DNA from: Dehalococcoidales bacterium
GTDB lineage: Bacteria > Chloroflexota > Dehalococcoidia > Dehalococcoidales > CSSed11-197
Direction of reading: 5' to 3'
Assembly: GCA_028717385.1 (NCBI GenBank)
Contig: JAQUNW010000005.1
Location: forward strand, 1-57,092
DNA length: 57,092 nt
Shown here: positions 5,830 to 45,230 of the stretch, piece by piece
Position numbering within the stretch: the first letter of the stretch is position 1
Layout of the letters: each line of letters starts with the position of its first letter
The notes under the pieces: model-generated
The model's database searches: none
What the model saw: only the letters and a program-made list of their open reading frames with translations
What the model was told of the DNA's origin: nothing
Program-made: the position numbers and the translations under genes

Positions 5830-6693
5830 TTAAAGCACCTTTTTTAAAGCATCGGCAATAGCTGGTATCAGCTGGGCAATTTTTGTCGCCGGGGTTGGCC
5901 GTACAATTTCGCCCATGTGACGGTTAGCCTGAGCTGCCTTTAAGCAGGCTTCAGCCGGATCCATTCCGGACGATATCAATGCTGATACAATACCCGTAAT
6001 TGTATCTCCGGTGCCGCCAATGGGTTCAAGGGCAGGGATCAGCGGATCTTTAACTACTCCGTAGACTTCCCCTTTAACCATTATATGATCAATAGCGGCT
6101 TTCACCAATAGATAATCAGGGGCATTGCCACTGGCATACGCTTCTTTACCCAGCCGGGCAATTTCAGTATTGTCTACATTAAAGATAAAGTGCTGTACAT
6201 AAGCTGGATGAGCAGCCTCAGCATCGGCTATAAAGCTCAACTCGCCAGGATCCGGAGTGAACAAGTTGAATTTTGGTGCGAGTCCTATCGCTTTAGCATT
6301 GAGCAAGGCGCCAGCATCGGCAATGAAGAATGGCTTGGGAGTTGTTTCTTCTACTGCTTGTACCAGTTTTAAAAACGGCTCTCGTGTAGGTAAAAGATAA
6401 TGAAGAGTGAGTACAGTAGATCCAATAGATGAGATTTCCTGGGTTAAATATTCAAGTATCTTGATAGTTCCATCCCCCATGCCGGTATCACCATAGGTAA
6501 CCAGATGAGGCGGTTCGATACCTAGTGTCTGGCAGGTGGTAGCGGCTGCTGACGCCATGGCGGCAGTTCCCAAGGTGACGTACTTGCCTTCGAGGGCATA
6601 GTCGCCGATATCTAATCGGCCTTTCTGATACCTGCATGCACCCTGTGTCAAGGGAATACCATCAATCGGTATAGTTCCTGCGATAACTAACAT
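5830..6693 (-). CDS. YjeF_C / ribokinase-fold protein (NAD(P)HX-dehydratase-like carbohydrate kinase family)
   Basis: C-terminal motif IGGTGDTITGIVSALISSG (GGxGDxLxG type), FTPDPGEL (compare TPHPGE) and LLVKAAIDHIMVKG. Its ATG shares one base with the TGA of the upstream gene. Confidence 0.7.
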   Translation of the reverse strand: MLVIAGTIPIDGIPLTQGACRYQKGRLDIGDYALEGKYVTLGTAAMASAAATTCQTLGIEPPHLVTYGDTGMGDGTIKILEYLTQEISSIGSTVLTLHYLLPTREPFLKLVQAVEETTPKPFFIADAGALLNAKAIGLAPKFNLFTPDPGELSFIADAEAAHPAYVQHFIFNVDNTEIARLGKEAYASGNAPDYLLVKAAIDHIMVKGEVYGVVKDPLIPALEPIGGTGDTITGIVSALISSGMDPAEACLKAAQANRHMGEIVRPTPATKIAQLIPAIADALKKVL

Positions 6694-7232
6694 CAGATCT
6701 TGCTCCTTTCTTCCCTAAAGAGTTCGGCTGCCTTCTGATAGGCATGCTCCATGGTATAGGCGCAGATAGTCTTTCCCAGCTCCTTGGGGGAAGGCCCTTC
6801 CCCAATCACGGTGTCAATCAAGCTCAGACCGAGCAAGGGTACATCTGGTCAGCCGCCACCGGAGATGTTAACAATAACACCAGTACCTTTCCGGTAGGTC
6901 ACTTTCATATTCCCGCACCTTACCATTGTATAACCTGCATAGTCGGTCACCTTGATCAGCTGGGTAAGGTACACCGGGACCAACTGGGTGCCCTTTGGCA
7001 GGAACAATATATCCATAAAGAGGATGTTATTATTCTCAAGGATACGCTCTACTGCATCCACATCGTCAGCATTGATTTCCAGAGCCATATCGCAACCAGT
7101 GCGATATTCCGGAGGCGGCGCAACTTCATTTGATGAGTAGCCGGCATGCTCTAAAAAATGCTTACCACGCATGGCATAGTAAATGTAGTCGAATACTACC
7201 AGAGCTTTTTCCTTTTCAACTTCTTTGGTCAC
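6693..7232 (-). CDS. DUF3343 (Se/S-carrier-like) domain protein. Candidate selenoprotein of 179 aa, reading the in-frame TGA at 6851..6849 as Sec.
   Basis: GTG start at 7232 behind AAGGAGG. The N-terminal part fits the DUF3343 pattern (VVFDYIYYAMRGKHFLEHAG...PPPEYRTGCDMALEI). The ORF track stops at TGA (6849), but the frame stays open for 51 more codons to TGA 6695..6693, which overlaps the next ATG. Confidence 0.55.
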
Positions 7233-7261
7233 TTTTTCCTCCTTGGGGGAGATACTGTTGC

Positions 7262-8428
7262 CTAACCCGGCCAGTAGAAATCACCTGCACGGGAAAAAAT
7301 TGATACCAATAGCACTGTATACCAAACATATAGCGAAAGGGCGGTTGTAATTGCCAGAGCGATAAATGGTCCTCGTACCTTGAACTTTGTGTCTGTCCAA
7401 TAAAAATCGATTGCCTCTTCTGAACATGCTTCAACGCAACGACCACATTTAATGCATGAGCCTCCCTGGGGGTGTCCCTTGTCTACATCTTCCGGATTAA
7501 GAGCGAACATGCGGCAAGAGTTAACACAATCCAGGCATTTAACACAGCGTTCCTGGTTAATTTTTAAGCGAAATGGGCTGATGCGGTCGAGGAGGTTGAT
7601 AATCGTACCGGCAGGGCAAATGTAGCAAAACCATCGTCTTTTAGTTAAGATTGGTAATATAATTGCCATTATTCCAAGAATACCAATCACCAACCAGAAA
7701 GCTTTCAGCTTGAGCCATAAAACCGGGTAAAAAAGGTTTACCAGGGAAAAACCCAGAAATATTGAGAGCAACACCAGCGCCAAAACCAGGCTGTAACGTA
7801 ATATATTTATCCATGGCTTTAAAGGTCCATAATAAAATTTATTATTAATGCCAATCTTCTGCCTGAGAAAATCCAACCGCACAAATTCCCGTCTGCCTGA
7901 TGCAGCTGCTTCTGGCAGGCCGCCAAGCGGGCAAATCCATCCGCAATAAGCTCTGCCAAACAAGAGGAGAATGATTGCGTAGGGCACCATGAATAGGGCG
8001 AAAGTGGCCAAGTTTCCTGGTATTTGAGTTTGCCAGGCATTAACCGAAGGCAAGAATTCAGCGCCTCCCCAGAAGATGGCTGGCAAAACCAATGGGTGGG
8101 GGAATTGCAAGGTTCCGATACCGCCGGTACCCGGAAAATAGTACCCTGGATTAAAATGATCCACCCATTGCATGAACTGGGTTGGGCCCCAGAGCATGAT
8201 CAGCCCCGCTAAACTCAGGGCAATAACCGTAGCAAGTGCAATGAAAAAAGACCGCCTGAGGCGTTCAATCTTGCCTGACTTCAGGATATAGAATATCATC
8301 AAGCCGCTGATTAATCCCAGCGCTACACCCAATATTGGGTAAGGTTTGGAGTACCACCAGCCGTTGAAGGCTGCGGTAACAAGCCCCATCAACAAAGCCA
8401 GCCGGAACGGGCTTAACTTCATTGTCAT
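7262..8428 (-). CDS. NapH/MauN-like integral-membrane 4Fe-4S polyferredoxin
   Basis: Multiple TM segments plus CGWICPLGG, CYICPAG, CVKCLDCVNSC and CIKCGRCVEAC. Confidence 0.8.
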   Translation of the reverse strand: MTMKLSPFRLALLMGLVTAAFNGWWYSKPYPILGVALGLISGLMIFYILKSGKIERLRRSFFIALATVIALSLAGLIMLWGPTQFMQWVDHFNPGYYFPGTGGIGTLQFPHPLVLPAIFWGGAEFLPSVNAWQTQIPGNLATFALFMVPYAIILLLFGRAYCGWICPLGGLPEAAASGRREFVRLDFLRQKIGINNKFYYGPLKPWINILRYSLVLALVLLSIFLGFSLVNLFYPVLWLKLKAFWLVIGILGIMAIILPILTKRRWFCYICPAGTIINLLDRISPFRLKINQERCVKCLDCVNSCRMFALNPEDVDKGHPQGGSCIKCGRCVEACSEEAIDFYWTDTKFKVRGPFIALAITTALSLYVWYTVLLVSIFSRAGDFYWPG

Positions 8429-9618
8429 CCTATTCGTCCACCGATGATGTCGATAAAGTTATTTAATCTTTCTTGAATATCACTCGTGTTTGTGTAAACG
8501 AGAGAAGAGTCGATGAATACTGGAGGTATTGCCAACTCATGATAAAGAGCATCACCAAGAGCTTCGTAAGACTTCATCAACGGTTTGTATTCCTGTGGCC
8601 CATAAAAAACGAGACCATGTACATTGTATCTCCTTGCAGTAGTGATCATGCGGTATTTCTGGGCGGTATAATCTTCCATATACAGACAGGGAGCATTATA
8701 CAAATAGCGCTCAACCAGGTAATCGAAAGGCGCTGGGAAACCAAAAACTGGCACTCTTTTTCTCAGGAGCATTGATCCCGAACAGCTATAATCGGTTACA
8801 ATAACTGCATTTGAGCCTTTTACCAGTTCAAGCAGTTCGTTGCTAATAAACCCGGCAAGCATAAGACGCGGTTTGGCATCAACAGGCAATCCCATTAGAT
8901 TAATCTGGGCAAGCTTGTCCTGATGCTCCAGAAGGTTTCTTTTAAAAACTGGCCTTTCCAGGGAATACCCGGCTTGCTGCAGCTTGAACACATCTTGCCA
9001 TTCTACCGGTGATCTCCCGCGTATTGGGTATTCATATAATCCCCGGAGGAGTTCCTTTATCTTGTCACTTTGGGTGATAGCCTTGGAGAGGTTAATAATA
9101 TTAATCGGTTGTCTGTTAAATTGACCAAGGTTTTTTGCGAGCATCTTCAGGTTGTGGCGGAATTTAGCTGTGGCTTTATAATCGCTTCGGTAGCGGTTAA
9201 CACGTGGCAGTTCCAGAGTAAATATTGATTGATCAAAACACTCTTTAAAACAATGCGTGGCTGTGTAGCTATCGTTTTCTGGACAAGTAATAATAAGGCT
9301 GTCAAGCACGTTCAAATCGAGTCCTTCAGCAAGGTTAGTCTTATGTTGGACGCTGCAGGCCTGCCAGCATTTGCCAGGTTTTTCTCCAATAGAACTGCCG
9401 GTTGGAATCAATGGCAAACGTAATGGGAACATGCCTGAAGCCAGAATAAGCTCTTCAGGTACCAGCGGGCAGAAATACCCGGTGACTTTTAATCCTAACT
9501 GTCTGGCATGCTGTATATTGTTCAGGATGTTATCGAAATCTTTTGATTTGAAGCCTTGCCGCCTGTGTATTTTATTTGCATTCATGATTACTGCAGGATT
9601 GTCGTCGTTCTTTGCCAC
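8425..9618 (-). CDS. 2-hydroxyacyl-CoA dehydratase / BcrC-BadD (HgdB-like) family Fe-S protein
   Basis: Contains VTGYFCPLVPEELILASGMFPLRL, typical of the family. The proposed GTG start at 9618 overlaps the upstream TAG (TAGTG). The ORF track ATG at 9651 would overlap the upstream gene by 34 nt. Confidence 0.7.
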   Translation of the reverse strand: MAKNDDNPAVIMNANKIHRRQGFKSKDFDNILNNIQHARQLGLKVTGYFCPLVPEELILASGMFPLRLPLIPTGSSIGEKPGKCWQACSVQHKTNLAEGLDLNVLDSLIITCPENDSYTATHCFKECFDQSIFTLELPRVNRYRSDYKATAKFRHNLKMLAKNLGQFNRQPINIINLSKAITQSDKIKELLRGLYEYPIRGRSPVEWQDVFKLQQAGYSLERPVFKRNLLEHQDKLAQINLMGLPVDAKPRLMLAGFISNELLELVKGSNAVIVTDYSCSGSMLLRKRVPVFGFPAPFDYLVERYLYNAPCLYMEDYTAQKYRMITTARRYNVHGLVFYGPQEYKPLMKSYEALGDALYHELAIPPVFIDSSLVYTNTSDIQERLNNFIDIIGGRIG

Positions 9619-10055
9619 TACCCCGTAGTCCTCAATAGCAGGTCCAGCCATTTGATGGTAACGATATTAAAGTAAACTATCCCAAGGTAGAAACCCGCTA
9701 AATAAAGCAGGGCGGATTGTCTGCCTTCGGCCGCCATGACGTGTTGTCTGAAAGGGCAACCTTCAGCAAAAACTGAGAAAAAGCCCATTCCCAATGAGCC
9801 GATTATACCGGCGATCAGGATTCCGGGGGAAGTAAAATCAAAACCAAGGGGGAAATTGGTAATCTCTCCCCCTATAAAATAGAAGAAAGTATATCCAACT
9901 GCGCCGCCGGCAATTAAACCGATTAATCCCTTTAAGCGGTAAGAGTCTTTTAGCATAATGAAATCTCGGATTCCGCTAATCGTACAGAATTTTGAACGTT
10001 GCCCAAGATAACCAATAACTATACCAAGTACCAGAGTTGCAATAGAAGCGATCAT
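9618..10055 (-). CDS. YeeE/YedE family (sulfur/selenium transport domain) membrane protein, C-terminal half
   Basis: Polytopic 145-aa protein with SKFCTISGIRD and AEGCPFRQH motifs. It overlaps the preceding half by 4 nt. Confidence 0.75.
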   Translation of the reverse strand: MIASIATLVLGIVIGYLGQRSKFCTISGIRDFIMLKDSYRLKGLIGLIAGGAVGYTFFYFIGGEITNFPLGFDFTSPGILIAGIIGSLGMGFFSVFAEGCPFRQHVMAAEGRQSALLYLAGFYLGIVYFNIVTIKWLDLLLRTTG

Positions 10056-10546
10056 TGAGGGACTCCTTTCTTGGCTTTAAAGCGAATATAGATAATTGCC
10101 AGCACTACCCCGATCGCAATAGAGGCAAGAGCTATCAGTGCGGTTCCTGAACCGTAGGATACAAGTAAGGCAGTTCTGATTGGGCAGGACCCCCATAACA
10201 AGCCCAAATTAGCAACCAGAAAGCCAAAAATAATGGCAAGAAACCTTTTTCTCACCGGGCCCGGCTGGAATGCGAATTCTTTCTTGCGTCTGGCTGCTAT
10301 AAAGGAGCCAATAAAAACGCCTGCCACAGTGAGCACTGGATATACGATAAAAGCATCTCTTATTGGCCAGTTGGTGCCAATCACTCGGTTAGTAAGCCAA
10401 GCAAAAAGGTCGTTGGGATGGCCGATAAAACTGATACCATATGCCTCGGGTGGTTGTACCTTGAAATAGGCCTGTACCAGGGCAGCCCCGAGTCCCATGA
10501 TAACGCCGATTATAAATACTCTGTAAGAGCTTATTTTCAACTTCAT
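10052..10546 (-). CDS. YeeE/YedE family membrane protein, N-terminal half
   Basis: Polytopic 164-aa protein with the WGSCPIRT motif. Together with 9618..10055 it makes a split transporter. Confidence 0.75.
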   Translation of the reverse strand: MKLKISSYRVFIIGVIMGLGAALVQAYFKVQPPEAYGISFIGHPNDLFAWLTNRVIGTNWPIRDAFIVYPVLTVAGVFIGSFIAARRKKEFAFQPGPVRKRFLAIIFGFLVANLGLLWGSCPIRTALLVSYGSGTALIALASIAIGVVLAIIYIRFKAKKGVPQ

Positions 10547-11211: not shown

Positions 11212-12165
11212 CTAGACTAGTGCAAGTAACGCTTTTTTCACCATTCCTTTGGTGATCTGGATCTTGTATTTGTTATGTGGTAGAGCGGTTGCGCCTTTGA
11301 CTGCTTCATCGCCGGCCGCAATGGCATTGGCTTCATTGATAGCCTTGCCTTTGATGAAATTTTCGGCATTGGTAGCACGCCAAGGTATAGGTGAAACACC
11401 GCCTAACACGATTTTAGCATCGCTAACATTTCCACCAGAAATAGTAGCAATGACAGCTACGCTGACCTCTGGGAAGTCGATAGCTTTCCGCCATGCCCAC
11501 TTCTTGTAGACTTGTTTGGTGCCTGCAGCTGGTGCGGGTACCTGTATTTCGGTAATAACTTCGTTGGTAGCCAGGGTATTAGCAAGTCCACCGTAAAGGT
11601 CAGCGATGGGAAATGAGCGTTGGTTGGTAACTATAGTTGCCCCTAAAGCTACCAATACCGGAGCGCAATCAGAAGGGCAGACTGCAAAACAGCCGCCTGC
11701 TCCCCACAAAGCGCTATGTTTTTTGTTGTTACCAGGAACCATATAGCACAGCAAGCCGCCTTTCCTGAGGCAATAAAACTCATTGTGCTCAGCTCTGTAG
11801 TACCAGCACCGTACTGCCTGACAAAGATTACCGGCAATGGTGCCCATATTTCTGAGCTGAGGAGTGCCTACTTTGTGTGCCGCTTCAGCCAACGCCGGAT
11901 ACTTTGAACTGACAATCGTCGACTCATATATTGCGGTGAGTCTGGTGAGGGCACCGATCTTGAGCGTTCCACTTTCTTCTTGTATGTACTCCAATCCCGG
12001 AATGGTCTTGATGTTTACCAGTTTGGTAGGAGGATTGGAATAGATCATGCCTTTCAGTGTGCATAAAATATCGGTTCCGCCGGCAATGATGGCTGAACCA
12101 GTGCCTAATGCCGAGACCGCTTCCTGGACTGACGTTGCATTGACATGCTGATTTATCTTATTCAT
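11212..12165 (-). CDS. molybdenum hydroxylase FAD-binding (medium) subunit, CoxM/XdhB-like
   Basis: 317 aa containing IAGGTDIL, NMGTIAGNL and the CO-dehydrogenase flavoprotein C-terminal region. Confidence 0.85.
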   Translation of the reverse strand: MNKINQHVNATSVQEAVSALGTGSAIIAGGTDILCTLKGMIYSNPPTKLVNIKTIPGLEYIQEESGTLKIGALTRLTAIYESTIVSSKYPALAEAAHKVGTPQLRNMGTIAGNLCQAVRCWYYRAEHNEFYCLRKGGLLCYMVPGNNKKHSALWGAGGCFAVCPSDCAPVLVALGATIVTNQRSFPIADLYGGLANTLATNEVITEIQVPAPAAGTKQVYKKWAWRKAIDFPEVSVAVIATISGGNVSDAKIVLGGVSPIPWRATNAENFIKGKAINEANAIAAGDEAVKGATALPHNKYKIQITKGMVKKALLALV

Positions 12166-12177
12166 TTCGTATTCTCC

Positions 12178-14451
12178 TTAAGCCTTTCCCAAGTGTTTCA
12201 GAATGCGGTCGGGACTCATCGGTCGAGTGAATTTAGAGAAATCGCCACCGATGGCATTGTGTATAGCCATCAACAAGGCTGCGAAGCCTGACCCATTGGC
12301 TGCCGGTTCACCCAGACCGCTCATACCGAAAGGACCGGTAGCATTGACGCTTTCGGTTAACCAGCCACCATGAACATCATCATTGATATCCATGGCAGTG
12401 TGAGCTTTCATATCTATATGGGTTTGGTCGAGCAGGGCACCTCTTTGAGGATCATGGTGAACATCCCAGAGAAGGCCTTTTCCACAGGCTGTCCATAGGC
12501 TCGAGCCGATCTGACCTCCGGCAGTAACCGGATCAATAACTCGGCCGCAATCAGTAGTATGGGCGTGCGCCAATATTTCTACATCCCCGGTATCGGGGTC
12601 AACCGCGACTTCAAAAGCACTGGCTACGCCCTGGCGATGGAAAGCAGGAGTACCGATCGGTTTGCCCTGGAATGGCCTTCTCAGTACTTCTGCGAAACTT
12701 TTTCCCACACCGATGATAGGTTTAGATATTCTGGCCATGACTTCAGCATGGGTGAGAGATTTGGACTGGTCGGTCTTAACAAAGATCTTGCCATCCCTGG
12801 CATGAAGGTCATCGACAGCAACGCCCAGTTGGTTGGCAGCATGAGCAAACAGCTGCTCGCGGATATCCAGAGCTGCCATCAGAGAGGCGGAGCCGTTACT
12901 GGAAGCACCCTGGCTACCAGCTTGCATGCCGCCATCTGGAGCCTGATCATTAGTACCGTAGGACGAACAGTAGACCGCTTCGAACGGAAGCCCAAGAGCT
13001 TCAGCAATGATATTAGCCTGAGTTACTGAGTTGGTACCGTTCTGGTTGTTACTCTGGCCGGTGACGAAGTTACAGGTGCCATCGGTGTTCATATAGATGA
13101 CCACTCCACGTCCAGCGCCCGAATGGCCATGCCGATCGTTGAAGCAGGCAATGCCTACACCGTGGAGCCGTCCGTCTGGTAGAGTTCTGGTACCGGGAGC
13201 ATGATATTTTTGTTCATAGTTTATCTTTTCGTTTACAGCTTCAAGGCACATGCGGGTAGAAGCGCAAGTCATTGGCCGGCCGTTATCTTGATTGAGCATA
13301 TCGTCGGTGATGGTGACCTTGCGCAGGTATTCCAGAGGGGTCATACCAATAGCATCAGCCATAGCGTTAAGTGCTACGCATAGAGTGAAAGCTGCTTCGG
13401 GGTGCATCAGGCAGCGATGTCCGGCTCCAAAGCCGGTATTAGTGGCTACGCCGTAAGTTTCCTGGGTAACGTTAGGTAGGATATAGCTGCAGTCAATATT
13501 TTCCCAACCATTACCGGCAGCAGCGTTGAAGCCGCCGTGGCAGTACCATTTTTGCTGCATAGCGGTCATCGTCCCATCCCTTTTACCGCCGAGCTTAGTG
13601 ATACCCTTCGGGGAATAGTGGTTGCGGCGTCGGATGGAGTGTAATCTTCTGGTACGCGAAATGGCTACTGGAACACCTGCTTTCTTGGAAAGCAGGGCAC
13701 ACAGAGAAGGTTCGCAGGTTTGCCCGCCACCGCCAAGGCCGCCGACACCGCTGGTTTGGCGGATATGGCAACGGCTCTGGTTAACTCCTAACTGAGAGGC
13801 GTATGTGCGGTTCTGGGCATGAGGATTCTGACCCTGGTCGTATCCGTATACATGCTCGCCTTCCCACCAGGCAACACCGGTAACCGGCTCAATAGTATTT
13901 TGAGTGTGAGGTCTGAGGAAGGGGGTTTCAACTTCAATGGTTACCTCGGCTTCTTCAAATCCTGCCTCTATATCACCACGAGAGTTACGTGCCGGGTTAG
14001 CCTGGACGTTGCTGTCAGGGAAAGTACCTGCCAGGGTAGAGCCGGGCTGCCAGGCTTCATCGGGATCGAGAACGAAAGGTAATTCCTCGTATTCAACTTC
14101 AATCAACTCAACTGCACGCTCGGCGATAAAGGGATCGGTAGCAGCGACTGCTGCAATTTCCCAGCCCCACACCAGCACTTCATCCGTCTTGTACTGGGGA
14201 TTTTCCTGCATTGTGATTACAGCTTTAACACCTTCTAGTTCTTCAGCCTTGGAGGTATTGATGCTTTTAACTTTGCAGTGGGCATGGGGGCAGCCAAGGA
14301 TGGCCGCAAAGAGTTTCTTGCCCGGGAAATAATCGTAAGGGAACATATACCTACCGGTTACAATTGAAGGTCCTTCATAAGCACGGTGAGGCTTGCCGAC
14401 TACGGCTAAATCCGTACCAAATTCAAAATCTATGGGTAATGATATCGCCAT
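12178..14451 (-). CDS. molybdopterin-binding (large) subunit of a xanthine dehydrogenase / aldehyde oxidase family enzyme
   Basis: 757 aa with the a/b-hammerhead N-terminal region and MoCo-binding domains (GPFGMSGLGEPAANGS near the C-terminus). Confidence 0.9.
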   Translation of the reverse strand: MAISLPIDFEFGTDLAVVGKPHRAYEGPSIVTGRYMFPYDYFPGKKLFAAILGCPHAHCKVKSINTSKAEELEGVKAVITMQENPQYKTDEVLVWGWEIAAVAATDPFIAERAVELIEVEYEELPFVLDPDEAWQPGSTLAGTFPDSNVQANPARNSRGDIEAGFEEAEVTIEVETPFLRPHTQNTIEPVTGVAWWEGEHVYGYDQGQNPHAQNRTYASQLGVNQSRCHIRQTSGVGGLGGGGQTCEPSLCALLSKKAGVPVAISRTRRLHSIRRRNHYSPKGITKLGGKRDGTMTAMQQKWYCHGGFNAAAGNGWENIDCSYILPNVTQETYGVATNTGFGAGHRCLMHPEAAFTLCVALNAMADAIGMTPLEYLRKVTITDDMLNQDNGRPMTCASTRMCLEAVNEKINYEQKYHAPGTRTLPDGRLHGVGIACFNDRHGHSGAGRGVVIYMNTDGTCNFVTGQSNNQNGTNSVTQANIIAEALGLPFEAVYCSSYGTNDQAPDGGMQAGSQGASSNGSASLMAALDIREQLFAHAANQLGVAVDDLHARDGKIFVKTDQSKSLTHAEVMARISKPIIGVGKSFAEVLRRPFQGKPIGTPAFHRQGVASAFEVAVDPDTGDVEILAHAHTTDCGRVIDPVTAGGQIGSSLWTACGKGLLWDVHHDPQRGALLDQTHIDMKAHTAMDINDDVHGGWLTESVNATGPFGMSGLGEPAANGSGFAALLMAIHNAIGGDFSKFTRPMSPDRILKHLGKA

Positions 14452-14453
14452 TG

Positions 14454-15281
14454 CTAGCTACCTCCAGCGACAATAGTGTCAATAATGCGAGTATAATCGA
14501 TGCAGAAGCATAAGTTCCCGGATAGGGCTTCCCTTGCTTGTGCACGAGTGGGTTTGGGGGTCTTTTTGTAAAGAGCAACTGTTGTCATGATATTGCCGGG
14601 GGTGCAGTAGCCGCACTGGAAGGTAGATCTTTCCAGGAACAGCTTCTGTACTGGGTGCATTTCCGCACCGTTGGCAAGACCTTCGATGGTTAATACTTCA
14701 TGACCTTCAGCTTCACAGGCCAGTACCATACAGGCATATACCGGGGTACCGTCCATATGAACAGTACAGCTTCCGCATTCTCCGCGATCACAGCCTATCT
14801 TAGTGCCGGTAAGCCCCAGTTTTTCCCTAAGGACGAATCCCAGCGACCAGTTAGGATCAACCACTATGGGGTAATCCTTGCCGTTGACTTTGAGGGTTAC
14901 CATACCTTCAATTGGTGCGATAGCCTCAAGGTGCTGGGCTTCGAGGTGGGCTTTAAGATCTGCCAGGGAAGAAAATTCCTGGTTATCGTAGGGGCAGAGA
15001 TACTTGGTAACCGGATCGCCTGCTTCGTGAGCTGAGTCAACATGAGATTGCAGCGCAGCAAACGTGTCAAACTCTATGCTGTCGTAGGGACAGACGAATT
15101 TGGCGACTGTGGTAGTTACTTTTACTGTATTGGTTGCCGTCTCGGTAGTGGTATCACCTTTGCAGGCTGCAAGCAGGGCAGACGAACCGATGGCGGTACC
15201 GCCAACGACAATGCCGGTGTTCTTGATAAACTGTCTTCTGGATATCGAGCTATCTTTGGTTAACTCGTCTTTTTCGGGCAT
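14454..15281 (-). CDS. (2Fe-2S)-binding small subunit of the Mo hydroxylase, with a Tat signal, lipobox and two zinc-finger-like repeats
   Basis: SRRQFIK twin-arginine motif, LLAAC lipobox, Thr-rich linker, two C-x2-D-x3-F-x5-L-x2-H-x4-H repeats, then the CDRGECGSCTV and CGYCTPG 2Fe-2S motifs. Confidence 0.85.
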   Translation of the reverse strand: MPEKDELTKDSSISRRQFIKNTGIVVGGTAIGSSALLAACKGDTTTETATNTVKVTTTVAKFVCPYDSIEFDTFAALQSHVDSAHEAGDPVTKYLCPYDNQEFSSLADLKAHLEAQHLEAIAPIEGMVTLKVNGKDYPIVVDPNWSLGFVLREKLGLTGTKIGCDRGECGSCTVHMDGTPVYACMVLACEAEGHEVLTIEGLANGAEMHPVQKLFLERSTFQCGYCTPGNIMTTVALYKKTPKPTRAQAREALSGNLCFCIDYTRIIDTIVAGGS

Positions 15282-25536: not shown

Positions 25537-25727
25537 TTTACGTTTTTTACTGACTTTAGATATGCAGGCTCTGGTCTGGCGCGTTCATCTGCCGGACTGA
25601 TTAAATATAGCCGGGAGGAATCTATATGGCAGAACCCACCGATGGATGTGTTTCTTCGGCAAAGGGTCCTATTTCAGAACCTGCTGCTGAGAATGTAAAA
25701 AGAGCGAAGGAGGAAACTACCAGGATT

Positions 25728-26336
25728 ATGACAGCACAAGTTGGCAAACCGGCACCGGATTTTGAGGCCGGTGCATATGTGGACGGCGGTTTCAAGAACA
25801 TCAAACTATCAGATTATAAAGGTAAATGGACAGTACTGTGTTTCTATCCAGGTGATTTTACATTTGTCTGACCTACTGAGCTTGCAGCAGTTGCTGCCAG
25901 GCAGGATGATCTGAAAGCCCTTGGTGTACAGGTGCTTTCTGTTAGCACAGATTCACGCTTCACCCACAAGATATGGCAAGCTGAAGAACTATCCAAAATG
26001 GTAGATGGTGGTTTCCCGTACCCGATGTTGTCTGACCAGGGTGGTCGTATCGGTACGATTTATGGTGTTTATGATGTAGATGCCGGAGTTAATATTCGAG
26101 GCCGGTTTATAATTGATCCGGATGGCATCATCCAAGCTATGGAAGTGCTGACTCCCACAGTGGGGCGCAATGTAGCTGAACTTATTCGCCAGGTAAAAGC
26201 TTATCAGCACACACGTAAAACCGGGGAAGTAATGCCATCTGAATGGCAGCCGGGTAAGCCTACTCTCAAACCATCGCCAGCGTTAGTTGGTAAGGTGTGG
26301 GAAGTGTGGAGGCCAGAAACTCCCGTACATGAATAA
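25728..26336 (+). CDS. prxU: selenocysteine-containing peroxiredoxin (AhpC/Prx1 family), with the TGA at 25869..25871 read as Sec
   Basis: ORFs 25626..25871 and 25932..26336 are in the same frame with no other stop between them. The join reads [16 protein letters not shown], so the TGA replaces the peroxidatic Cys of the universal FTFVCPTE motif. Confidence 0.85.
25880..25902 (+). promoter_or_regulatory. candidate bacterial SECIS hairpin
   Basis: GCTT-GCAGC-AGTT-GCTGC-(C)-AGGC begins 9 nt after the UGA and has G/U in the apical loop. Confidence 0.5.
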
Positions 26337-27012: not shown

Positions 27013-27088
27013 GCGGGAGTAACTCAGTTGGTAGAGTGCCTGCCTTCCAAGCAGGTTGCCGCGGGTTCGAGTCCCGTCTCCCGCTCCA
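27013..27088 (+). tRNA. tRNA-Gly (anticodon UCC)
   Basis: Hand-folded cloverleaf: acceptor GCGGGAG/CTCCCGC, anticodon arm CCTGC-CTTCCAA-GCAGG, T-loop GGTTCGAGTCC, encoded CCA. Confidence 0.95.
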
Positions 27089-27128
27089 GTTTGACTTACC
27101 TAAACTGGTAGGTGAAAATGTAAACCTC

Positions 27129-27203
27129 GGGCTCGTAGCTCAGCGGCAGAGCGGACGGCTCATAACCGTTTGGTCGTAGGTTCGAATCCTACCGGGCCCA
27201 CCA
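27129..27203 (+). tRNA. tRNA with a CAU anticodon (elongator Met, or Ile2 if lysidine-modified)
   Basis: Acceptor GGGCTCG/CGGGCCC, anticodon arm GACGG-CTCATAA-CCGTT, T-loop GGTTCGAATCC, encoded CCA. It lacks the initiator-type GGG/CCC anticodon stem. Confidence 0.9.
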
Positions 27204-30185: not shown

Positions 30186-30477
30186 CAAACAAAAAGCCTC
30201 CTGTCCGTGAAGGGACAGGAGGCTAACCCGCGGTGCCACCCTTCTTAGCTTCCGGCTTGGAAGCTATCTCTGCGGATACAGGGGAAAACCCCGATATCCT
30301 GAGGTTTGATAACGCTCCTCTCTGCGTCCAGGCCTACTTGCTTTTTAGCTTTCGGTTGGCAGCTCCCAGATCCATTCAACCCGAGCGTAGAAACCGGTTC
30401 CCACCAATCCCGGCTCTCTGGATTCCCGTTTTCGGGCATACTAGCTCTGTTCTCAGCCTTTGTTTATTAAGTTTGAT
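30186..30477 (-). promoter_or_regulatory. T-box riboswitch leader, probable Trp specifier (UGG at 30374..30372)
   Basis: On the minus strand: AG bulge/distal loop CCAGAGAGCC...TTGGTGGGAACC, specifier context GAA-UGG-A, T-box sequence AGGGTGGCACCGCG (30242..30229), and terminator AGCCTCCTGTCC-cttcac-GGACAGGAGGCT + TTTTTGTTTG (30224..30186). Confidence 0.85.
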
Positions 30478-44857: not shown

Positions 44858-45230
44858 TTGCTGGAGTTAGGAAAACCGGATGGTCGCCATTTAGATAATG
44901 TAAATGGAGGAAAGTCCGGGCTCCGCCGGGCAAGGATGCTGGGTAACTCCCAGGAGGGGTAACCCTACGGAAAGCGCAACAGAAACATACCGCTCAATCC
45001 AGAATTGAGCAAGGGTGAAATGGTGAGGTAAGAGCTCACCAGCAGCCGGGAGACCGGCTGGCTGGGCAAGCCCCATCCGGAGCAAGGCCAAATAGGGGGA
45101 CCTGAGGGCGCCCGGCCCGTCCCCGGGTTGGCCGCATGACCTAGGTGGTAACACCTTGGCTAGATAGATGGCCGTCGGCCTCCTTGAGAGGTTACAGAAC
45201 CCGGCTTATAGGTTTACCTGGCTCCAGCAG
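44858..45230 (+). ncRNA. rnpB: RNase P RNA, bacterial type A
   Basis: P4 strands GAGGAAAGTCCGGGCTCC and ACAGAACCCGGCTTA. P1 pairs TGCTGGAG with CTCCAGCA. An extended -10 element TGATATAAT (44844..44852) lies just upstream. Confidence 0.95.

Follow-up and report, generated by a model that had tools for sequence, protein, structure and literature searches.

A Predicted Selenocysteine-Containing Form of the DUF3343-DUF8182 Protein Family in a Dehalococcoidales Genome

Does the in-frame TGA that follows 127 codons of a DUF3343-family gene in a Dehalococcoidales bacterium (Chloroflexota; Dehalococcoidia) end that gene, or is it decoded as selenocysteine (Sec) within a protein of 179 residues? The gene lies on the minus strand of contig JAQUNW010000005.1 (GenBank assembly GCA_028717385.1), of which positions 1 to 57,092 of the forward strand were analysed; this whole stretch of 57,092 nucleotides (nt) is called the window here. 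An original prediction, made from the letters of the window without database searches, had proposed a new selenoprotein that reads through the UGA. Comparison with relatives shows a Sec/cysteine (Cys) pair at this codon, translation of the tail behind it, a conserved hairpin constrained at the RNA level, a regular pairing with one downstream gene, and natural fusions with neighboring genes. The Cys alignment, the homologs with TGA, the tail under purifying selection and the conserved hairpin support the central claim of the prediction, and on this sequence evidence the gene is very probably a genuine Sec-decoding gene.

An in-frame TGA aligned with an invariant cysteine

The upstream open reading frame (ORF) runs from 7232 to 6849, comprises 127 codons and ends in …VNISGGG-TGA. 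Beyond this TGA (6851..6849) the same frame stays open for 51 codons (PDVPLLGL...REERSKI; PDVPLLGLSLIDTVIGEGPSPKELGKTICAYTMEHAYQKAAELFREERSKI) until a second TGA (6695..6693), the final A of which is also the first A of the ATG (6693..6691) of the next gene, referred to below as the partner, in a TGATG overlap. The ORF, the extension and the shared A were all reproduced from the sequence at the coordinates originally given. If the first TGA were a genuine stop, the product would have 127 residues, and the following 155 nt would be an untranslated spacer or a separate small gene. All public annotations take the gene this way and give a product of 127-128 amino acids (aa), as they do for the Sec forms of other genomes. 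The original prediction had held that the stop-free 155-nt stretch itself spoke for read-through; the open frame is real, but in this window of 45% GC at least 51 open codons follow the stop of 16% of long ORFs by chance, a frequency that favors a genuine stop. The open extension of the gene, taken alone, is thus not beyond chance, and the case for recoding depends on comparative evidence.

A search with the read-through product returned 155 relatives in two length classes: a long class of 170-195 aa, colinear with the query over 93-98% of its length, and a short class of 125-131 aa, the members of which end exactly at GGG. Every full-length homolog aligned has Cys opposite the TGA (27 of 27 in alignment A1 and 62 of 62 in alignment A3) within the motif [IV]VN[IV]SGGG-C-PD[IV]P, and Cys47, Cys128 and Cys157 are all invariant in these alignments. 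The Cys forms come from Dehalococcoidia, Thermodesulfobacteriota and other Deltaproteobacteria-type lineages, Moorella, Nostoc, Bathyarchaeia, Nitrososphaerota and Methanocaldococcus (MJ0011). At the DNA level, the aligned codon is TGT or TGC in 65 distinct homologs, and a metagenome scan with TGA fixed in the search pattern yielded 33 further contigs. In total, 35 distinct TGA forms were found in independent metagenomes and metagenome-assembled genomes (MAGs), each with 47-56 open codons after the TGA that are homologous to the C-terminus of the Cys forms. A search for homologs that span the position with Cys or with an aligned TGA had been proposed with the prediction, and homologs of both kinds exist: the full-length ones all carry Cys, and other genomes carry an aligned TGA.

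In a neighbor-joining tree, the TGA forms fall into two clades with many Cys lineages between them, which implies at least two independent switches between Cys and Sec. Clade A consists of 24 distinct sequences from Dehalococcoidia, including that of the window. Clade B derives from wetland and peat metagenomes, has a tail of the type UPDIPYVAQQLHG… and is bacterial by context; the same ribokinase-like gene follows it, and one of its loci (L100) additionally has an adjacent full-length YedE gene. This distribution bears on whether the TGA could have arisen by an error of sequencing or assembly, or by a mutation that inactivates a gene in decay. One related clade A contig, L085 (~1796), speaks for such an origin, as it keeps the TGA and the hairpin and is frameshifted on both sides of the TGA, being either an assembly error or a decaying copy. 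Against it, 35 distinct sequences of two clades, drawn from many independent metagenomes and MAGs, share this TGA, the coding sequence before and after it is under purifying selection, and two other loci reproduce the gene of the window: L088 is identical to it around the Sec codon and L109 encodes the same peptide there, so that the TGA of the window is not a read error. The comparative data have already refuted error or decay as an explanation, the probability of which is close to nil.

Two further observations concern the Sec forms as a group. The codon before the UGA (context 6854..6846 in the window) ends in C in 33 of the 35 Sec-form loci (GGC or GCC); it is GGC in 25 of the 65 Cys forms. 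The codon after the UGA is CCG or CCA in 34 of the 35 and never CCC, a codon found at this place in 25 of the 65 Cys forms. These counts, which carry no correction for sequence relatedness, suggest that Sec insertion prefers a C-UGA-CCR context. In several Dehalococcoidia genomes, two pairs of this gene and its kinase-like partner lie a few kb apart, one pair with Cys and one with Sec (Table 1).

Translation of the tail and the hairpin behind the UGA

The behavior of the tail speaks against a genuine stop. The ratio of nonsynonymous to synonymous differences (pN/pS, Nei-Gojobori) in clade A is 0.205 for the 47 codons after the UGA and 0.214 for the 100 codons before it, and in clade B it is 0.169 after and 0.138 before, with synonymous divergence (pS) of ~0.5-0.75. 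The other two frames of the tail contain 1.5-2.8 stops on average. A TTG at 6836 could start an ORF of 47 codons, as the small-gene version of the genuine-stop explanation would have it; this possible start is not conserved, since codon +5 is W, L, M or Y and no conserved start codon exists inside the tail. Relatives never have the downstream piece as a gene of its own; it is joined to the upstream part in every one of them. The tail is colinear and homologous with the C-terminal third of every Cys homolog, it is under in-frame purifying selection, its 47-56 codons are kept in 35 distinct sequences, and termination at the first TGA would remove the invariant Cys157 together with half of the DUF8182 domain. 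Lack of conservation in the 51 codons, or an independently initiated gene in relatives, had been named at the outset as findings that would speak against read-through; the codons proved conserved and purified in frame, and relatives have no such gene. We consider termination at the first TGA exceedingly improbable.

The second comparative signal is a hairpin placed like a selenocysteine insertion sequence (SECIS). The one originally predicted, GCUC-GGUCU-GAGC, was confirmed in sequence and position (Table 1); counting the U of the UGA as nt 1, its loop exposes G23-U24 (6829..6828), and it can alternatively fold with 5 base pairs (bp), a G22-U26 wobble and a GUC triloop. Across clade A, a hairpin at nt 17/18-30/31 of the form G(G)CUC-[A/G]GU[N][U/C]-GAGC(C) can form in 24 of 24 sequences. 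Of the cells of this specified helix, 93% are paired in the 24 sequences versus 10-44% when the 3' partners are slid, and RNAalifold, run unguided, returned this helix and no other. Pair 18-30 is G-C in 20 sequences, U-A in three and broken in one, while pair 22-26 is G-U in 15, A-U in seven and G-C in two. The hairpin is present in all 24 clade A Sec forms, in none of the eight nearest Cys orthologs and in six of all 65 Cys forms, and the peptide encoded there is LGMKL in the nearest Cys orthologs versus L[GS]L[SR]L in clade A. The strongest SECIS signal is the freezing of third codon positions: their entropy averages 1.32 bits over 73 codons and is zero only at codons -1, +6, +7 and +8, the last three of which are the hairpin. 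These data make the hairpin specific to UGA forms and show constraint on the RNA itself. A conserved SECIS-like structure among orthologs, which the prediction had set as a check, is therefore present in the TGA forms and absent from the nearest Cys orthologs.

Likenesses to other Sec-decoding genes point in the same direction. The string GGUCUG occupies nt 22-27, the same positions as in the SECIS of Escherichia coli fdhF (a sequence verified against 5,419 E. coli genomes). A published model of bacterial SECIS elements (PMC13188914) specifies the size of the loop, its first bases (G, then G/U), at least 4 bp of stem and a spacing of 18 nt, and the window and all 24 clade A sequences have these features. 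For the energy threshold of the same model the result was mixed (see below). Clade B encodes an unrelated peptide here, yet it has a two-part hairpin, GCC(C)A-GC-AGUU-GC-(A)UGG(G)C, the apex of which (GC-AGUU-GC) is the same as in the hairpin of a second UGA-containing gene of the window, a selenoperoxiredoxin of the PrxU type. The prediction had pointed to this peroxiredoxin (FTFV-U-PTE), ~19 kb away, as a sign that the organism decodes UGA as Sec; its TGA was found at 25869..25871, and its score of 364.7 bits places it in the PrxU equivalog family. The PrxU hairpin (GCAGC-AGUU-GCUGC) begins 12 nt after its UGA, a distance equivalent to that in the DUF3343 gene. Gene callers would truncate the PrxU gene too. 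A scan of the window for TGA read-through combined with GU-loop hairpins returned the DUF3343 gene, PrxU and three further hits. Reassignment of UGA was considered and is ruled out, as TGA ends 19 of 73 long ORFs in the window and this very gene.

Several results weigh against Sec decoding. The 45-mer after the UGA of the window has a minimum free energy of -6.5 kcal/mol (ensemble -7.8; z=0.38 versus shuffles), where the criterion of the published model is -7.5; as single-sequence folding is no better than that of shuffles, the SECIS case rests on comparison and not on thermodynamics. With the hairpin enforced, 60-mers of all 24 sequences reach -7.7 kcal/mol or lower (-11.4 for the window). 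No other hairpin of the family is as weak as that of the window, with its 4-5 bp. There is little covariation: both bases of a pair have changed in one case only (G-C to U-A), in three related sequences of a single subclade, and this may reflect one event. The hairpin also shares its place with conserved codons, so that protein constraint accounts for some of its conservation. Rfam searches of the whole window at the gathering threshold and of 6650..6900 at E<=10 matched no SECIS family; two weak matches in the latter region were to eukaryotic long noncoding RNA models and are noise. In addition, none of selA, selB, selD and tRNA-Sec was seen in the 57-kb window or the fetched loci, with a tRNA-Sec search finding none in the window or 43 loci, regular expressions for Sec-machinery motifs having no match, and ten large ORFs of the window checked for Sec machinery proving to be housekeeping genes. 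The machinery can consequently be deduced from PrxU only.

The lack of Sec-machinery genes among the sequences searched and the small hairpin, weak in the window itself, would also fit read-through of the UGA without Sec, either by a near-cognate tRNA inserting Cys or Trp or by a programmed signal, in which case the hairpin would be a stimulator and not a SelB site. UGA followed by C is a leaky context, which counts for the same explanation. Against it, replacement of an invariant Cys, as at this codon, is the signature of Sec; in its G-U loop, its spacing and its GGUCUG string the hairpin agrees with the fdhF SECIS; PrxU, encoded in the same window, has a similar hairpin and a TGA codon for its catalytic residue; and Dehalococcoidia MAGs with 46-49 selenoprotein genes have been recorded (PMC13326102). 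Read-through of this kind appears very unlikely. With Sec decoding as the preferred reading, we infer SelB-dependent insertion at UGA-128: Sec-tRNA(Sec) would be delivered by SelB, which would recognize the hairpin 14 nt after the UGA by its exposed G23-U24, Sec128 would stand where bacteria and archaea otherwise have an invariant Cys, and translation would terminate at the second TGA, overlapping the start codon of the partner. This is the ordinary bacterial route of recoding, and nothing about it is categorically new.

Domains, neighboring genes and a possible carrier role

Coordinates are collected in Table 1. The likeness of the N-terminal half to DUF3343, noted in the prediction, is borne out by a match to PF11823, with a score above the gathering threshold and the conserved Cys47 present. 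The C-terminal domain that the prediction had left unrecognized is Pfam PF26554 (DUF8182), which is listed in precomputed Pfam hits for every homolog as well as for the truncated product of the window itself (P0003); the NMK motif, the VNISGGG-U-PDVP loop and invariant Cys157 lie in this domain. In the AlphaFold2 (AF2) model of a Cys homolog with 69% identity (P0001; predicted local distance difference test, pLDDT, 85.9), the Sec/Cys residue lies between the strand 121-127 and the helix 133-140. Reactive nucleophiles are usually found in a glycine-rich loop at a helix N-terminus, and Sec/Cys128, in the SGGG-U/C-PD loop that leads from strand to helix in the model, would occupy a position typical of one.

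Table 1. Positions of the predicted selenoprotein gene, its parts and neighboring features in the window, followed by related loci on other contigs
Feature	Position	Strand	Details
Predicted selenoprotein coding sequence	6693..7232	minus	179 residues (127 + Sec + 51) plus stop; GTG start 7232..7230; true stop TGA 6695..6693
Ribosome binding site AGGAGG	7238..7243	minus	5 nt 5' of the GTG start; direct sequence reading
In-frame TGA, predicted Sec, residue 128	6849..6851	minus	Aligns with TGT/TGC in 65 distinct homologs and TGA in 35 distinct sequences
SECIS-like core GCUC-GGUCU-GAGC	6822..6834	minus	Starts 14 nt after the UGA; stem GCUC/GAGC, loop GGUCU
DUF3343 / Se_S_carrier domain (PF11823), residues 10-73	7014..7205	minus	E=2.3e-13, 49.9 bits (cut-off 25)
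Cys47 (TGC)	7094..7092	minus	In motif RTGCD of the DUF3343 domain; invariant in homologs
DUF8182 domain (PF26554), ~residues 80-179	6696..6995	minus	Boundaries approximate; from precomputed Pfam hits, invariant columns and AF2 homolog model
Cys157 (TGC)	6764..6762	minus	In the DUF8182 domain; invariant in homologs
Partner, ribokinase superfamily, 287 aa	5830..6693	minus	GGTGDTITG motif; PF01256 Carb_kinase 31 bits, NnrD-like, weak
Partner ribosome binding site AAGGAG	6708..6703	minus	Inside the selenoprotein tail
NapH-like membrane polyferredoxin (Fe-S) gene	8428..7262	minus	
HGD-D/double-cubane-cluster-like gene	9651..8425	minus	
Split YedE/YeeE-type transporter	10546..10052 (164 aa) and 10055..9618 (145 aa)	minus	PF04143 and TIGR04112 partial matches; 4-nt overlap
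Molybdenum (Mo) hydroxylase, xanthine-dehydrogenase/CO-dehydrogenase type, three genes	11212..15281	minus	Immediately upstream of the YedE-carrier string
PrxU-type selenoperoxiredoxin	25611..26336; TGA 25869..25871	plus	FTFV-U-PTE; 364.7 bits vs NF040737 (cut-off 270)
Clade B loci L083, L090, L094, L096, L098, L100, L102, L104, L108, L112, L113			MCKAGNMK…GGG-U-PDIPYVAQQLHG…
Paired-copy loci L001, L008, L009, L011, L093, L105	L001: 2560..3959 and 8001..9411		Cys copy is of subfamily PDIPYLHVEMVDK
Natural fusions of two kinds, YedE::DUF3343-DUF8182 and carrier::ribokinase-like	L027 4867..6513; L029 4888..6537; L037 4615..6495		Proteins P0151, P0152, P0158, P0159, P0171

The partner gene lies directly downstream in 34 of 35 Sec forms and 61 of 64 Cys forms (95 of 99 together), and its start lies a few nt at most from the second stop in the Sec forms, and likewise from the only stop in the Cys forms. 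Its AF2 model (pLDDT 91) matched NnrD, ThiD, PdxK and Pfk-2 in Foldseek with template modeling (TM) scores of 0.53-0.62 at 10-19% identity, and its score of 26.8 bits against the NnrD equivalog TIGR00196 falls below the cut-off of 129.85, which leaves a fold likeness at superfamily level only. No sequence match to the partner was found in the Protein Data Bank (PDB).

The string of genes in the window consists of a hypothetical membrane protein, two YedE halves, the HGD-D/double-cubane-like and NapH-like genes, the selenoprotein gene, the ribokinase-like partner, a hypothetical protein and a B12-radical SAM protein. The YeeE/YedE halves described in the prediction as neighbors are indeed part of this string, but they are not immediate neighbors, as the HGD-D-like and NapH-like genes intervene. 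Each YedE gene encodes about half of a protein with 10 transmembrane segments, the same split recurs in many related loci, and the halves in the window contain Cys, not Sec. The genes hyp187, YedE halves, HGD-D-like, NapH-like and hyp399 recur around the Sec gene and its partner in L003, L004, L006, L084 and L111, and the radical SAM gene of the string was seen in L006, L111 and L091; in L091 the HGD-D-like, NapH-like and hyp399 genes are present and YedE gave no hit. YedE genes are found within a few kb of the carrier gene, as the DUF3343-DUF8182 gene is called from here on, in many loci.

Fusions tie the three proteins together more closely. In Nostoc, Calothrix and a gammaproteobacterial MAG, YedE::DUF3343-DUF8182 fusions consist of a complete YedE followed by the carrier, and the YedE portion scores 423 bits against TIGR04112, 'putative selenium transporter'. 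Fusions of the carrier to the ribokinase-like protein, of 514-588 aa, occur in five cluster representatives. YedE, the carrier and the kinase-like enzyme thus form a unit by adjacency and by fusion, and the split YedE of the window is the probable membrane partner of the carrier.

A tentative model, drawn by analogy and somewhat less likely to be right than wrong, is that the protein serves as cytoplasmic acceptor or carrier of the YedE-type channel, takes a sulfur or selenium species onto Sec/Cys128 and passes it to the ribokinase-fold partner. Like YeeD/TsuB with YeeE, the carrier would work on the cytoplasmic side of YedE, Cys47 and Cys157 might act as relay or resolving residues, and the species would be handed to, or reacted on, the ATP-dependent partner; Sec in place of Cys could allow faster transfer, or transfer at lower substrate levels. 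For YeeD, modification of a conserved Cys by thiosulfate has been reported, and YeeD is essential for uptake by YeeE (PMC11073785). Selenium as the cargo is favored by gene clusters of other organisms in which DUF3343, YedE and HGD-D-like genes accompany selD and Sec-lyase genes (PMC5322559), and by the rise of yedE mRNA by 5.3 log2-fold on selenium depletion in Methanococcus maripaludis (PMC11097638).

Several points count against this model. It is drawn only from gene context and fusions. A Foldseek search of the PDB with the P0001 carrier model gave no match below E=3.8e-3, with TM scores of ~0.3 to generic ferredoxin-like ACT/PII folds, and searching PDB sequences with a profile of the carrier produced no meaningful match. 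In L001, the Cys copy adjoins full-length YedE and TusA genes, and a GcvH-like and an HdrD-like gene lie between the two copies, a context that suggests sulfur rather than selenium as the cargo.

A bolder proposal, which we regard as unlikely, is that YedE, the DUF3343-DUF8182 carrier and the ribokinase-fold enzyme constitute an unrecognized, ancient pathway of sulfur or selenium acquisition or insertion in bacteria and archaea (the latter represented by MJ0011 of M. jannaschii). Sec/Cys128 would receive the chalcogen from the channel, and the kinase-like enzyme would activate an acceptor hydroxyl with ATP for its installation. If this were true, it would provide a route to a C-S or C-Se bond, or to a cofactor, that is independent of the three known selenium-utilization traits. 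In addition, since the start codon and ribosome binding site of the partner lie beyond the Sec-UGA (155 nt), selenium supply could gate the expression of the partner in Sec forms by translational coupling.

Other features of the window lie outside the carrier unit. The Mo hydroxylase genes encode a flavin adenine dinucleotide (FAD) subunit, a large subunit with the Mo cofactor, and a 2Fe-2S subunit with a twin-arginine-like leader. A labile selenium cofactor is used by some enzymes of this class, which makes the adjacency to the YedE-carrier string suggestive; the three genes are absent beside the module in L003 and L004 and were rejected as part of it. RsmH, FtsA and PheST are syntenic with these two marine Dehalococcoidales contigs. 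Further along the window lie tRNA-Gly(TCC) and tRNA-Met (27013..27203, plus strand), a T-box leader (30208..30463, minus strand) upstream of a gene for a TrpX-like binding protein of a tryptophan ATP-binding cassette transporter, and a bacterial RNase P class A RNA (44868..45224, plus strand).

Comparison with known systems

Judged by sequence, DUF3343-DUF8182 is a new selenoprotein family that would use ordinary bacterial Sec recoding, with a biochemical function suggested by context only. The claim of novelty held up against the 2022 (PMC9312934) and 2026 (PMC13188914) selenoprotein catalogues, from both of which the PF11823/DUF3343 family is absent, and against NCBIfam, where the carrier had no match at E<=0.01 to any model, selenoprotein-specific ones included. 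The 2026 table contains the Haft 2023 and 2025 families with NF accessions (PMC13188914). No mention of a Sec-containing DUF3343, and none of DUF8182, was found in a literature search, and the 2015 study of DUF3343 described no Sec-containing member and no selenium-specific subfamily (PMC5322559).

The find is a solid, useful and moderately surprising addition to selenium and sulfur biology, not a new principle. Since 2015, DUF3343 has been a leading yet untested candidate for sulfur and selenium trafficking, with no earlier assignment of a reactive site; the Sec substitution would mark the chemically critical residue, and it does so in the uncharacterized DUF8182 domain and not in DUF3343. 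Together with the two kinds of fusion, Sec would define a three-protein unit of YedE channel, carrier and ribokinase-fold enzyme that is directly testable. The family belongs in selenoprotein catalogues and in annotation pipelines, as its Sec forms are now annotated in truncated form, and it adds to the large selenoproteomes reported for Dehalococcoidia.

As a recoding event, the case resembles PrxU (NF040737) and E. coli FdhF, in which an in-frame UGA likewise replaces a conserved Cys and a hairpin follows directly downstream within the coding region. Both belong to other protein families, however, and the hairpin described here is shorter than the 40-nt fdhF element; the U16 bulge and the lower stem of 3 bp can be formed in most relatives but not in the window. 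As a protein, the carrier shares its N-terminal domain and conserved Cys with classical DUF3343 proteins (PF11823), proposed as selenium/sulfur chaperones, and it shares the association with YedE and HGD-D-like genes seen in the DUF3343 neighborhood of Slackia (PMC5322559). Classical members are single-domain proteins of 80-100 aa, whereas the Sec considered here sits outside DUF3343, in the second domain, DUF8182. As part of a transport system, the closest parallels are YeeD/TsuB and YedF (PMC11073785), which are likewise small soluble proteins with a reactive Cys encoded beside, or fused to, a YeeE/YedE transporter; these are of the TusA type, unrelated to DUF3343-DUF8182 in fold and in sequence, and the carrier, known from sequence, has a regular ribokinase-fold partner in addition. 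That partner has in common with NnrD, ThiD, PdxK and Pfk-2 the fold and the GxGD anion-hole motif, though little of the sequence. Finally, the YeeE/YedE selenoprotein with its GUxSG motif, listed in the 2022 and 2026 catalogues, places Sec in the same transport and trafficking system; there, however, Sec resides in the membrane transporter, whereas in the Dehalococcoidales window it would reside in the soluble carrier and the transporter halves have Cys.

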